The notes: generated by a model from the sequence alone, not told the origin. A stretch of DNA of 64,000 nt from an uncultured Acidimicrobiaceae bacterium (GCA_963704815.1 CAVPHU010000004.1:2354-66353), one strand, 5' to 3'. Positions 2,917 through 12,814 are shown, numbered from the stretch's first letter. A program made the numbers and translations.

Positions 2917-2972
2917 GTGGGCGAGGGGGGACTTGAACCCCCACGTCCTTTCGGACACAGGAACCTGAATCC
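2917..2972 (-). repeat. Copy of the 3' half of tRNA-Leu(CAG): att-like direct repeat
   Basis: 54/56 identical to 12730-12785. The two differences are a compensatory pair in the T stem. Confidence 0.85.
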
Positions 2973-3184
2973 GGTCACGACGGTTCTGATCAGTGCCAAG
3001 CGAGGCCGAATTGTGCTGCTGACTGCGGCGCTCGCGAGGGGCATGCCCCCTCGATGATGGGCCGTACTGGCGCGTGTCGTTGTGTTCGGTTGCAGTCCGG
3101 GTTGCAGCTTCCGAGGAGCGCTGCGATGTCCACGGTGTCCAAGATCCCGGGTCACCTCCAGTCCGTCGATCGTGCGCGATCGAT

Positions 3185-3571
3185 GTCAGACCTCGCGCGC
3201 GTTGACCAGGAGCAAAGCCCACTCGGCGAACGATCCCAATCGTGCAGGCCCTCGACCGAAGGGAAGGGCCCAGATCCCCGAGCGAGACAGGTCGACGACT
3301 TCCCCATCGCAAGGCTCGAGAAATGGCGATTGTTGCCGAATGACTCCGGAGAAGGCCGGATGCACTTCGAAAGAGAGAAGGTCCTCGAACCGGGACTCAC
3401 CGGGTCCGATACAGCGATCGAACTGTTAGCCGGTCGTCGCTGAAGAAGACGGAAGGACGGTCTTTGACCCAGACGGTTAGACCAATGGCCAGAATCGACG
3501 GCTAGATAGCCGTTGACCGGTCCACCTGCCTCCTCGATGGAGATCAGGTCCTCTTGGATCGAACTCGACAT
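3185..3571 (-). pseudogene. Hypothetical protein spread over three frames
   Basis: MSSSIQEDLISIEEAGGPVNGYLAVDSGHW / TVWVKDRPSVFFSDDRLT / FDRCIGPGESRFEDLLSFEVHPAF...LLLVNAREV read in successive frames. Lower-GC region. Confidence 0.25.
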
Positions 3572-3600
3572 CGGGATGTGACGCTCACGGGCGTCGGAAC

Positions 3601-4134
3601 TCAGCGCTCGATCCGTCTACCAGCATCGAGAGCCGCTTTGCGATGCACCGATGGAGCACGCTTTGCGCATCTCTGCTCGACGAGCGACAGAACCTTGCCC
3701 TGGCGTGACAGCACCCAGACACCGCCCTTGTCGAACGAGATCTGGTGGACGCCCCTGCCGAGTGTGTCCACGACGGCTGTCAGCGCCTCGAGGACATCGC
3801 CGTGCGTGCACGCGACGCTGCCATCGGGAAGCTGTCGGAGGAGCCTCCACGTCTCCTCCACGGGTGCCCCTTCCGCGAGCGAGGCGTTGAACACGACCGG
3901 CTTGCGGTGCCGCGTTGCGAGGGGCTGGACGGTCTGGACACAGCGTACGTAGGGGCTCGAAACAACCTGACCGGCGGACGTCAAGTCCAAGAGGTGCACC
4001 AGCCGGACCGCCTGCGCCTGCCCGCTGCTGCTCAGCGGGCGCAGCCGATCGTCGGGGCCGTGTCCTCGGACTCCCGCGTCGGCGTGGCGGACGACGTAGA
4101 CTCGCGCATGTTTCGCCGGGTGCGACGGGGCCAT
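3601..4134 (-). CDS. Histidine phosphatase family protein (SixA/PGAM-like)
   Basis: RVYVVRHADAG (RHG-type motif) near the N-terminus and a later THGDV motif. Start chosen at the internal Met (MAPSHPAK). Confidence 0.7.
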   Translation of the reverse strand: MAPSHPAKHARVYVVRHADAGVRGHGPDDRLRPLSSSGQAQAVRLVHLLDLTSAGQVVSSPYVRCVQTVQPLATRHRKPVVFNASLAEGAPVEETWRLLRQLPDGSVACTHGDVLEALTAVVDTLGRGVHQISFDKGGVWVLSRQGKVLSLVEQRCAKRAPSVHRKAALDAGRRIER

Positions 4135-4276
4135 GGGTCGATTGTGATGTGATACCGGAGCGGGCTCTTCATCCACTTCGTACGAACGGGGATGCATCGC
4201 ACAGAACGGATGACGCCGATCGCGTCGCTGTGCTCCACAGTCGAGTGGTATCGGTTGGTCGAGATCAAAGGAAGAG

Positions 4277-10436: not shown

Positions 10437-10465
10437 CGACGCCGGGACCGTTCACCATCGGGTGC

Positions 10466-11728
10466 TCAGGCGTGCGGCTCGGGAACCTCGACTCGCCGTG
10501 ACTTGATCAGCGCGACGACGATGGAGGTCGTCAGGTATGCCGTCGCGACAGCGATGACGACCGGTGCGGCCGTGAGTGGGCCGAGGCCCACGGCGAGCAC
10601 GGCGATGAACGTGAGCCCGATCGGTGCCTTGATCGTCGCCCCTGGGACGGCCGCCAGCATGCACCCGACCGCGATCGCGTACGGGATGTCGGGAAACATC
10701 AGGTGTGCGACGACGCCGGCGGCGCCGCCCACGAAGAGCATCGGCAGCACGTTGCCGCCGATGAAGCCCGTGGCGAGGCTGATCGCCATCGCCAGCATCT
10801 TGCCGACGAGCACCGCGACGAGCAGCCAGATGCTGATCGAGGCCGACTCGTCGATCACCGTGGTGAGCTGATCGTTCCCGGCTCCGACGGTCAACGGGAG
10901 TGCGAACGCGATCAGCCCGACGAGCGCGCCACCGACGGCGCCGCGTACATACGGATTCGGCAACTTCGCAGCGACCGCCTGGATCAGCTTCACGATGACG
11001 ACGAACACGATCATGATTGCGCTCGACGCGATGCCGAGACCTGCGCCGACGAGGAGGTGCCAGCTCGCGAAGTCGTCGACGGGAACGGCGAAGCTGTTGA
11101 GGAACGTCGTTCCGACCGCGCCGAAGAACACGGCGAAGGCGACGGTCGCGGCGATCAGTTGCGGCAGGATCGACTCGATGTACCGGTCCTTCGGGGTCGG
11201 TGCCAGCTCGCTGACGATCAGGGTGCCGAGACCCGGCGAGGTGAACGCACCACCGAAGCCGCCGGAGATGCCCATCATCGTGGCGTCGAGACGGGCCGTC
11301 TCGTCTCCGGGCCACCGCTTCGAGGCGATCCACGACCCGAGCCCGCCGCCCAGCATGACCAGGGCGAACGATGGCCCGAGGCTGGCGCCTGCGATCGCGG
11401 AGACGGCCGAAAGGAGGACCCACGACGGTGCGACCTTGTGGTCGACCGAACCGGATTCGATGACGGCGACGCCACCGGGCACGTGATCGGTGATGTTCAG
11501 CCAGCTGCGCACCGCCGCCGCAACCAGCCCGCCGGCCGCGACGAACGGGATCCACCACCAGTCGCCGGACCAGGTGTCGATCCGTGGATCACCGAAGATC
11601 CGATCGGTCAACCCGCCGGTGATCCCGAGATAGACGAGGCCGAGCAGGCCGATGACGAGTCCCATCGCCAGTGCGATGGCGAGAAGTTGTCGGTACCACG
11701 GTCGGTCGATGGGGAGCGCTGTCGTCAT
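10466..11728 (-). CDS. ClC-family voltage-gated chloride channel / H+-Cl- antiporter homologue
   Basis: ~10 TM segments. ClC-like motifs GASLGPSFALV and GGFGGAFTSP. Start taken at MTTALPIDRPWY. Confidence 0.7.
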   Translation of the reverse strand: MTTALPIDRPWYRQLLAIALAMGLVIGLLGLVYLGITGGLTDRIFGDPRIDTWSGDWWWIPFVAAGGLVAAAVRSWLNITDHVPGGVAVIESGSVDHKVAPSWVLLSAVSAIAGASLGPSFALVMLGGGLGSWIASKRWPGDETARLDATMMGISGGFGGAFTSPGLGTLIVSELAPTPKDRYIESILPQLIAATVAFAVFFGAVGTTFLNSFAVPVDDFASWHLLVGAGLGIASSAIMIVFVVIVKLIQAVAAKLPNPYVRGAVGGALVGLIAFALPLTVGAGNDQLTTVIDESASISIWLLVAVLVGKMLAMAISLATGFIGGNVLPMLFVGGAAGVVAHLMFPDIPYAIAVGCMLAAVPGATIKAPIGLTFIAVLAVGLGPLTAAPVVIAVATAYLTTSIVVALIKSRRVEVPEPHA

Positions 11729-11883
11729 GATGGTGCCTCTGGTCTCGTTCGGCCGCGACGATCTCGGGCGCGTGCAGGTGATCACCCGCGGGTGGGTCGA
11801 AACCACTCTGGCAGCTGCCAGTCGGTGGGTGATCACTCGAATCGAGCGATTGGCACACCGATCGAGTCTGGGAAGATGGCCGT

Positions 11884-12558
11884 ATGAGCGACGAAGAGTC
11901 CCCGGACGTCGAAGCCGACGGCATCAAGGAACGACTGCGCAGCCCCGATCGGGTGGTTGCGTTGAGTGACGGCGTGTTCGCGATCATCATCACGATCCTG
12001 GTGCTCGAAATCGCCGTTCCGGAGGATCTCCCGGAACAGTCGCTCTTGCGGGCGCTCGAAGATCTGCGTCCCACCTTCGTCGCCTGGGTGATCAGCTTCC
12101 TGCTCACGGGCATGTTCTGGGTCGCCCATCGCGATGTCTTCGCCCGCGTCCGGGTCGTCAACCGCGATCTCGTTTGGCTGAACCTGCTCTTCCTGCTCCC
12201 GGTGAGCCTGATCCCGTTCGCAGCGTCGGTGCTCGGCCAGTACCCCGACGAACCGGTCGCCATGCACCTGTACGGCGTCGTGCTGATCACGGCCACCCTG
12301 ATGCGGTTCGCGCTCTACCGGTACGTGGTCACGCGCCCGACGTTGTTGTGGCCGACCATGACGACGGATCGGGCTCGCCTGTGGCTCGCCCTCACGGCGT
12401 CGCCGATCGCGCTGTACGCCGTGGCCATGGTCGTTGCCGACGCGTCCACCGCGCTGAGTGCCGTGCTCTACTTCTCGGTCCCGGTGGTGTACTTCGTCGC
12501 CATCACCCTGCTGCGTCGACATCCGAGCACTCGATCCGAGGCCGACGAGTTCACGTGA
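11884..12558 (+). CDS. TMEM175/DUF1211 family (putative K+ channel) protein
   Basis: Signature RVVALSDGVFAIIITILVLEI followed by five further TM segments. Confidence 0.75.
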   Translation: MSDEESPDVEADGIKERLRSPDRVVALSDGVFAIIITILVLEIAVPEDLPEQSLLRALEDLRPTFVAWVISFLLTGMFWVAHRDVFARVRVVNRDLVWLNLLFLLPVSLIPFAASVLGQYPDEPVAMHLYGVVLITATLMRFALYRYVVTRPTLLWPTMTTDRARLWLALTASPIALYAVAMVVADASTALSAVLYFSVPVVYFVAITLLRRHPSTRSEADEFT

Positions 12559-12727
12559 ATTCTCGCATCCCGAACGGTGGGTGACGTCCACGCCACGGCG
12601 CGAACCCTCCGATTCGTGTTGGTCGATGCCGATCGATCGCAACCCGTTGGGTTTCAAAATGGTTGCAAGCAGGCCATTTGCACTCGAGCGTGTCGTACGC
12701 CGAATTCGTAGAACCCCAGTTCAACGG

Positions 12728-12814
12728 TGGTGGGCGAGGCGGGACTTGAACCCGCACGTCCTTTCGGACACAGGAACCTGAATCCTGCGCGTCTGCCAAT
12801 TCCGCCACTCGCCC
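12728..12814 (-). tRNA. tRNA-Leu (anticodon CAG), class II with long variable arm, CCA encoded
   Basis: Minus strand reads GGGCGAG TG GCGG..CAGGA TTCAGGT TCCTG..GCGGG TTCAAGT CCCGC CTCGCCC ACCA. All stems pair. Confidence 0.9.

Follow-up and report, generated by a model that had tools for sequence, protein, structure and literature searches.

This study concerned a tRNA-Leu(CAG) gene and a displaced copy of its 3' part, which together delimit a putative genomic island of about 9.8 kb, lacking an integrase, in the genome of an uncultured Acidimicrobiaceae bacterium (GCA_963704815.1). The window, that is, the whole stretch of 64,000 nucleotides analysed, corresponds to positions 2354-66353 of contig C4 (CAVPHU010000004.1). 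The assembly is a metagenome-assembled genome (MAG) of the uncultured-organism type, of 13 contigs and 4.17 Mb, 90% complete and with 2.8% contamination; it is referred to as G000 or the own genome, and positions are those of the window unless a contig is named.

The tRNA-Leu(CAG) gene, its displaced copy and the DNA between them

The intact gene (12728-12814, minus strand) was the single tRNA called in the window by ARAGORN, scored 54.9 bits with the Rfam tRNA model, and is the sole credible tRNA-Leu(CAG) of the assembly; the Rfam search of the stretch returned nothing besides tRNA. Its displaced counterpart (2917-2972, minus strand) is a direct repeat of 12730-12785, with 54 of 56 nucleotides identical (96%, by repeat search), a match far beyond chance within 64 kb. 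Read in the sense of the tRNA, the copy opens with G30, on the 5' side of the anticodon stem, takes in the anticodon loop, the variable and T arms and the acceptor strand, and ends one C past the discriminator, while the DNA on its upstream side, from 2973 onward, bears no resemblance to a tRNA 5' half. The two mismatches (G at 2927 against C at 12740, and C at 2941 against G at 12754) are the two sides of a single T-stem pair, the stem being GGGGG/CCCCC in the copy and GCGGG/CCCGC in the gene. An earlier, sequence-only reading of this DNA had described both the same-orientation copy of the portion from anticodon stem to acceptor and the compensatory nature of its two differences, and both observations were borne out, the former by ARAGORN, Rfam and the repeat search, the latter by reading the two copies.

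Island open reading frames (ORFs) were annotated with Pfam and NCBIfam, and RNAs with ARAGORN and Rfam. The cargo had been described as regulatory and ion-transport genes, and the two protein family collections agreed. It begins with a histidine phosphatase superfamily gene resembling SixA and the MutT1 C-domain (3601-4197, minus strand; PF00300, E=2.5e-10; also NCBIfam), the final 20 or so codons of which are unique to this genome according to the boundary alignment. This is followed by genes for a DUF2252 protein (4277-5698, plus strand; PF10009, E=2.7e-141), a MalT/LuxR-type STAND regulator with AAA_16 and a GerE helix-turn-helix domain (5786-8032, plus strand; Pfam and NCBIfam), and a DUF1269-like membrane protein that falls below the Pfam cut-off (8088-8681, plus strand; PF06897, E=8.6e-5, 23.2 bits against 26.9). 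The ion-transport genes specify a SulP-family anion transporter with a STAS domain (8685-10436, plus strand; PF00916, E=1e-83, and PF01740; TIGR00815, 364.5 bits against a cut-off of 380.45), a CLC-type chloride channel or antiporter (10466-11836, minus strand; PF00654, E=2e-33) and a TMEM175-family K+ channel (11884-12558, plus strand; PF06736, E=3e-27).

Around the cargo lie two non-coding arms, of about 690 nt on the left (2973-3662) and of 169 nt beside the tRNA gene (12559-12727), neither of which contains a frame with the coding signature of the genome (GC at third codon positions). Nothing in 2973-3600 resembled any known protein, which gave no backing to the frame-broken ORF described there in the sequence-only reading, and the GC content of this stretch beside the distal repeat was, as had been pointed out, low (61.5%). 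Both arms are single-copy in the own genome, and blastn and tblastx searches for homologs of them in the own genome, all fetched public loci (L numbers) and 25 genomes of the family found none; the exact junction words were absent from the genome and metagenome contigs searched. The composition of the island is atypical, the outcome of a check that the sequence-only reading had proposed: its GC content of 65.7%, against a median of 68.8%, lies at the 1.6th percentile of 836 same-size windows of the own genome, and its tetranucleotide distance at the 96.8th.

That no integrase is recognisable between the repeats was upheld by several searches. PF00589, applied in six frames with stops read through, gave 18 matches in the genome, several of them beside tRNA genes, and none on C4 at E<=1; PF00239 (serine recombinase) gave nothing above cut-off anywhere in the genome. 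A tblastn search with 13 integrases of the own genome against C4:1-16000, which covers the stretches flanking the repeats where such a check had been advised, returned only noise, Pfam found nothing at E<=1 in any ORF of 2973-3600 and 12458-12904, and no integration or transfer genes were detected among the island ORFs with Pfam and NCBIfam. Elsewhere in the genome, ordinary integrase-bearing islands are marked by pairs of a tRNA gene and a 3' fragment: tRNA-Arg(ACG) at C5:446107 with C5:440401, tRNA-Leu(TAA) at C1:1326309 with C1:1317364, and tRNA-Pro(GGG) at C1:197056 with C1:202189. Fragments of tRNA-Pro(CGG), tRNA-Val(TAC) and tRNA-Val(CAC) occur on other contigs and hint at contig adjacencies.

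The unoccupied site in relatives and the origin of the tRNA halves

Forty related genomes (G numbers) were compared by DNA search. The segment 2558-2972, comprising a gene of 88 codons (2559-2825, minus strand), its upstream region and the tRNA half, directly adjoins an intact tRNA-Leu(CAG) and fhaA in G024, G006 and G023; the equivalent segment also adjoins the tRNA gene in G009, on a short contig that ends before fhaA, and shorter matches of about 125 nt were found at the same place in G010 and G034. This empty-site alignment is unambiguous, and relatives thus join tRNA-Leu straight to the sequence left of 2917, contradicting the possibility, raised at the outset, that all relatives might share the half-tRNA with no empty variant. 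The 88-aa gene is preceded by a strong Shine-Dalgarno sequence, and its product, which is conserved and of unknown function, matches no protein family. A scan of public genomes with this protein gave 13 loci, all in Acidimicrobiia-type MAGs, and in 10 of the 13 an intact tRNA-Leu(CAG) ends about 100 nt upstream of the gene; overall, the empty site was seen in at least 10 related Acidimicrobiia genomes. The native flank on the other side is fhaA (12950-13696, plus strand; PF12401 and PF00498), at the head of an fhaA-fhaB-pstP-rodA cluster, and the order to the right of tRNA-Leu (fhaA, fhaB and a PP2C-RodA reading frame) represents a conserved actinobacterial cell-division cluster. In every relative whose contig has both, tRNA-Leu and fhaA are neighbours.

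Other islands occupy the same site. G021 (loci L174 and L039; G021:C18 5174-14786) carries a different island of 9.6 kb at this tRNA-Leu, with a 17-nt repeat, a 455-aa tyrosine integrase beside the tRNA, and a cargo of a ThiF-family E1-like protein, a prokaryotic E2, an AAA_23 ATPase and a HAAS-domain protein, a combination that resembles anti-phage defence. At L167 there is a 23-nt tRNA fragment with no tRNA within 10 kb, the site being occupied by yet another island. With tRNA-Leu at the 88-aa gene in 10 of the 13 loci and islands at others, the comparison indicates that the junction between them is ancestral, that 2973-12727 is an insertion, and that the tRNA-Leu site beside fhaA is an integration hot spot. 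In the same-genus sister species G001, a tRNA-Leu 3' end with CCA (L031, G001:C133, 1409-2357) is followed by an ORF of at least 315 aa without a Pfam match, inside which the contig ends and whose C-terminal part (RNTIEGLNGIVKD...) recalls DDE transposases.

Could the 88-aa gene itself belong to an element? This was considered and rejected, the gene being single-copy in the own genome and unaccompanied by bounding repeats in L172, L173, L165 and L168; slight uncertainty about its native status comes from L176, which has a degenerate 23-nt repeat 8 kb downstream. At 2770-2916, which takes in the 5' end of the gene and the region upstream, the sequence is about 98% identical to G024:C369, from another genus, in which fhaA is only 69% identical, a disparity that suggests recombination at the att site, or flank exchange, between lineages. 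Tandem CCGGTAGAGAT words upstream of the gene (2850-2871) are conserved in the empty-site relatives G024 and G006 and in G021, and less well in G023; they belong to the native flank, probably as an operator or promoter of the 88-aa gene rather than as att arms. On the opposite flank, between tRNA-Leu and fhaA (12870-12989), a 58-nt unit is repeated with a period of 62 nt, and relatives of it, 80-90% identical, on C1, C2, C10 and C12 and at C4:65715 form a REP-like family. Further on, a PP2C phosphatase and RodA/FtsW are specified by one frame of 1323 aa (14170-18141), joined by a long, acidic linker with tandem repeats (66-nt units at 15275-15866).

Comparison with relatives also revealed which half of the tRNA gene is foreign. 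Among about 30 relatives, the T stem of tRNA-Leu(CAG) is GGGGG/CCCCC in nearly all genes and GAGGG/CCCTC in two lineages (G040 and G033), and in none is it GCGGG/CCCGC. At the loci compared, tRNA-Leu genes followed by the conserved sequence upstream of the 88-aa gene do not encode CCA, whereas many of those with other downstream DNA do, including the genes of the island-bearing G021 and of G001. Of the two, it is the copy at 2917-2972 whose T stem is native and whose flank is the native one lacking CCA; the unusual stem, together with an encoded CCA, belongs to the intact gene. This is the pattern expected of integration into tRNA genes (tDNAs), in which the new 3' end comes from attP and the old one is displaced (PMC4383910), so the 3' half of the intact gene arrived with the island. 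The gene at 12728-12814, containing the attL identity block (12730-12785), is thus shown by comparison with relatives to be a chimera, of a native 5' part and an island-borne 3' part, and 2917-2972, the putative attR core, corresponds to the displaced native 3' part. Each end retains one of the two alleles, which places the crossover 5' of the T stem, within the 31 identical bases at 2942-2972; these span the anticodon loop and the variable arm, with the 3' strand of the anticodon stem between them. The site is of the anticodon-centred class, a sublocation that is used by many tyrosine integrases. No donor with GCGGG/CCCGC was found; the T-arm word alone is uninformative, being present in many Firmicutes and in a few Actinomycetes with other anticodon stems, and the full 56-mer did not occur elsewhere in the genome and metagenome contigs searched.

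Fragments of tRNA genes are common in prokaryote genomes (PMC9897764), and it might be supposed that the copy is a decayed duplicate of the tRNA-Leu gene, or a chance match. Such an origin is vanishingly improbable, given a 54/56 match that includes a compensatory pair, a native position beside the 88-aa gene, no 5' half upstream, and the contrary testimony of the empty-site alignment. A decayed second tRNA-Leu gene, put forward in the sequence-only reading as an alternative, was ruled out by the location of the fragment, which is precisely that of the native 3' end in relatives.

The sequence-only reading had also suggested a possible tandem array, with the island as its inner unit and the relaxase-bearing DNA to the left as its mobile part. 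A TrwC/AAA_30 relaxase is indeed present 1.3-2.9 kb to the left of the island, running from C4:2008 to window position 1091 and then, after a break near 1085, from 1088 to 1579 in another frame; about 1 kb without clear genes separates it from the 88-aa gene. In addition, an integrase lies a few kb beyond the 88-aa gene in L172, L173 and L176, with relaxase-like DNA also in the first two, so that the side beyond this gene is a variable region as well; the degenerate repeat of L176 likewise speaks for an array. An active tRNA-Leu array extending leftward from 2917 is nevertheless very unlikely. The 88-aa gene and its upstream region, which would stand between the units, are conserved native flank in 10 of 13 loci; no third tRNA-Leu repeat was found in the assembly with up to eight substitutions allowed, contig C4 extending for 5.2 kb to the left of the fragment, nor any integrase on the contig. 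Moreover, the relaxase, already in two frames, is truncated at 1509-1559, where the minus strand is the 3' half of a tRNA-Arg(ACG). This scrap is of a foreign allele: it differs from the genome's own tRNA-Arg (C5:446107) and is 98-100% identical to matches in many genomes of the sister genus. The DNA on the left is what remains of another element, which had another target. Since the relaxase scar has its own tRNA-Arg target and a native gene lies between, the tandem-array reading is not supported.

The break in the relaxase, like other frame breaks in the assembly, may reflect sequencing errors, and in an assembly from an uncultured organism, with the completeness and contamination given above, one may ask whether the repeat pair could itself be artefactual, through a contig chimera formed at the 56-nt repeat or a mixture of strains. 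This is highly improbable. The copies differ at two positions, and each stands in a coherent junction, one joining the native flank to its allele and the other a native 5' part to a foreign 3' part; a chimera would not produce a truncated tRNA fragment beside the native flank, and the arms are single-copy.

Candidate arm sites and cargo shared with other elements

Within the left arm, 116 nt from the att core, lies the 20-mer GGTTGCAGTCCGGGTTGCAG (3088-3107, plus strand), a candidate arm-type recombinase site composed of two GGTTGCAG words 12 nt apart and present only once in the own genome. The right arm contains degenerate words of the same kind, GCAACC, in inverted orientation, at 12639 and GGTTGCA at 12661. 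Four GGTTGC words occur in 371 nt of the arms, against 0.21 expected, and three of the four are the heptamer GGTTGCA, against 0.02 expected; the excess of the heptamer is significant after correction for motif choice, but the word had been picked post hoc. Shared 8-mers between the two arms were also tried as arm sites and were not significant (P about 0.09), only GGTTGC(A) standing out.

The exact GGTTGCAGTCCGGGTTGCAG was found in 47 metagenome contigs, which represent 26 distinct contexts, and in 10 genome contigs (loci L202-L258). The hosts are mostly Actinomycetota, among them Nonomuraea, Actinomadura, Thermomonospora, Streptosporangiaceae and uncultured lineages. A tRNA T-arm word lies within 170 nt of it in 11 of the 26 contexts, compared with a background of 0.016 per 340 nt. 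On the tRNA side the order is a tRNA 3' end, 45-60 nt, GGTTGCAGTCCGGGTTGCAG, about 7-25 nt, and then, on the opposite strand, a tyrosine integrase gene, stop codon first; the tRNAs concerned in these other elements are Lys-TTT, Lys-CTT and Ser-GCT. In L256, for example, tRNA-Lys(CTT) is followed after 46 nt by the 20-mer and after another 6 nt by the stop of a 420-aa integrase (PF00589, E=1e-20); the same order was seen at tRNA-Ser(GCT) in Nonomuraea, and at tRNA-Lys(TTT) in L235, which also carries a pSAM2-type RepSA gene near the att region. Many of the integrases beside the 20-mer are truncated to 131-146 aa. On the fragment side (attR), the 20-mer is inverted and upstream of the tRNA 3' fragment, as in the window, L215, L222 and L226. 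These arrangements make it a candidate conserved arm-type site of an actinobacterial family of tRNA-integrating elements, and we know of no description of it. From its position between tRNA target and integrase in other Actinomycetota, the island looks like a decayed actinobacterial integrative element, leaving a scar similar to a cis-mobilizable element (CIME). An intact parent element with the same arms was found neither in the genome and metagenome contigs nor among the fetched loci and the 25 family genomes. The 20-mer may serve as a marker for the element family and is a candidate binding site of its integrase or excisionase.

The cargo has its own history. Its homology to other genomes begins near 3663, in the last codons of the phosphatase gene, and stops at 12558, the stop codon of the TMEM175 gene. 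This block (3663-12558) is 91% identical over 7 kb to DNA of G041 (CAVONU010000006.1), in which 5562-12558 is joined to 3663-3742, yet the fhaA gene of G041 is only 69% identical, a contrast which points to recent horizontal transfer of the block. In G001, it is present in pieces on three contigs, at 84-94% identity and in non-tRNA contexts; no tRNA-Gly fragment could be seen by eye beside it on contig C53. The intergenic stretch upstream of DUF2252 (4198-4276) is strongly conserved across three copies (the window, G001 C53 and G001 C73), and is retained in the C73 copy without the phosphatase gene; it has no Rfam match and may be a regulatory element.

The G041 copy of the block is part of the second unit of a tRNA-Met array (G041:C6:690463-731185; loci L178, L198 and L199), made up of an intact tRNA-Met (690463-690539) and 45-nt 3' halves at 706663 and 731141. 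As in the window, halves and gene are distinguished by a compensatory pair in the T stem (GTAGG/CCTAC against GCAGG/CCTGC), and no PF00589 match was found near the array. The first unit, of 16 kb, contains broken HsdR pieces, Schlafen/AlbA_2 and PRiA4_ORF3, with CTTCTAACGGA twice in both arms; the second, of 24 kb, contains OsmC, a methyltransferase, a flavin monooxygenase and a STAND regulator together with the window's cargo block. The tRNA, the two-unit structure and the arms, which are unrelated to those of the window, set these islands apart from that at tRNA-Leu. The same cargo is therefore found in two integrase-less tRNA-half islands, at different tRNAs and in distant lineages, and either ordinary recombination readily exchanges cargo between decayed islands or such cassettes travel with help supplied in trans.

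Such observations allow a different account of the tRNA-Leu island, namely that it never had an integrase of its own and is a satellite, or CIME-like cassette, moved in trans by a helper of the GGTTGCAG-arm family and perhaps still mobile. Consistent with this, neither att core is damaged and 31 bases 5' of the T stem are identical between them, the arms have been kept along with the exact 20-mer of the family, no integrase remnant is left although the cargo has diverged by only about 9% from the copy in G041, and the second island holding that cargo, at tRNA-Met, likewise lacks an integrase. However, no helper is visible, the genome having no other copy of GGTTGCAGTCCGGGTTGCAG and no second tRNA-Leu(CAG) att copy; it gave no RepSA (PF20199) match either, in a search whose control was also unmatched. 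The island of the window and that of G041 have arms unrelated to one another, and the same facts are accounted for by the deletion of mobility genes, a common event in ordinary islands. An origin as a satellite is accordingly considered unlikely. The broader proposal is equally doubtful, that integrase-less tRNA-half cassettes of Acidimicrobiales form a class of hitch-hikers with att cores and arm sites (including the 20-mer), which would be moved by helpers and swap cargo (SulP-CLC-TMEM175) between tRNA sites and lineages.

A chimeric tRNA gene as the probable scar of a lost element

The DNA at 2973-12727 is very probably a genomic island that was formed by recombination between the attP of a circular element and tRNA-Leu(CAG), and that has since lost its integrase. 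The proposal of the sequence-only reading, attL and attR of a tRNA-targeting integrase around a fossil, integrase-less island, is supported by the empty site, the tRNA alleles, the composition and the absence of a recombinase. In this process, the attP would have carried the 3' part of a tRNA-Leu gene and undergone site-specific recombination with the tRNA-Leu(CAG) beside fhaA. With a crossover 5' of the T stem, the working tRNA gene became chimeric, receiving its 3' part, with a paired T stem and CCA, from the element, while the native 3' part was pushed 9.8 kb away, still adjoining its native neighbour gene, as comparison with relatives shows. The parent probably belonged to the actinobacterial tRNA-integrating family with GGTTGCAGTCCGGGTTGCAG in its att arms; in intact members of this type the integrase would sit where the cargo block ends (12558). 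Its integrase, and any replication or transfer genes, would then have been lost, leaving the two non-coding arms around the cargo.

Several points weigh against this interpretation. The exact 20-mer is in the tRNA-distal arm, and inverted, the tRNA-proximal arm having degenerate half-words only; the arm word was noticed post hoc, no tRNA is nearby in 15 of the 26 contexts, and a few of the matches are probably coding. Loss of the integrase is deduced rather than seen, because no remnant of it is detectable. The block in G001 lies outside any recognisable tRNA context, so it may have entered an older scar by ordinary recombination, and the genome is a MAG-type assembly in 13 contigs.

The island has no self-mobility now. 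Both att cores are intact, so that a cognate integrase acting in trans could in principle excise it, a CIME-like state, but none is visible in the assembly. CIMEs were defined for streptococcal elements of the ICESt1 type, and their cis-mobilisation has been shown experimentally (Pavlovic et al. 2004, Bellanger et al. 2011, reviewed in PMC5704250). Like them, the island retains attL and attR (54/56, with arm DNA on both sides) and has no integration or transfer genes; unlike them, it is known from sequence, and no related integrative and conjugative element (ICE) is present for accretion. As regards the origin of CIMEs by decay of ICEs or integrative and mobilizable elements (IMEs), the 20-mer is common to integrase-bearing elements, although the searches turned up no intact parent sharing the island's arms.

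The actinomycete ICEs (AICEs) of the pSAM2 type offer a partial link. The att identity segment of pSAM2, about 58 nt long, begins at the anticodon loop of the tRNA and reaches its 3' end, and the 56-nt block of the window, from G30 to the discriminator, has the same layout; L235, with the exact 20-mer, carries a RepSA of the pSAM2 type. On the other hand, no int, xis, repSA or FtsK-like transfer gene is among the island ORFs, the published arm sites of pSAM2 are a different word, and AICEs have actinomycete hosts, while the host here is a member of Acidimicrobiia.

The tDNA islands catalogued by Islander (Hudson, Lau and Williams 2015, PMC4383910, in which the sublocation classes of Williams 2002 are cited) resemble the island in most respects: a regenerated tRNA gene and a displaced 3' fragment in direct orientation, an anticodon-centred crossover (class A), a size of about 10 kb, atypical composition, other islands at the same tDNA in relatives, and an uninterrupted site in relatives. 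They differ in having a tyrosine integrase inside, and the filter of Islander would discard the island because it has no integrase gene; for the same reason it is placed here with the CIME-like scars.

It is an ordinary kind of genomic island scar, but an unusually well documented one. A block of 7-9 kb with ion-transport and regulator genes moves between distant lineages of Acidimicrobiales and ends up in integrase-less islands at different tRNAs. Scars of this sort are missed by island finders that require an integrase, which matters for the uncultured Acidimicrobiia, a group with, to our knowledge, almost no described mobile elements. The locus is a clean illustration of an essential tRNA gene turned into a chimera of host and element, and of an island that has outlived its integrase.

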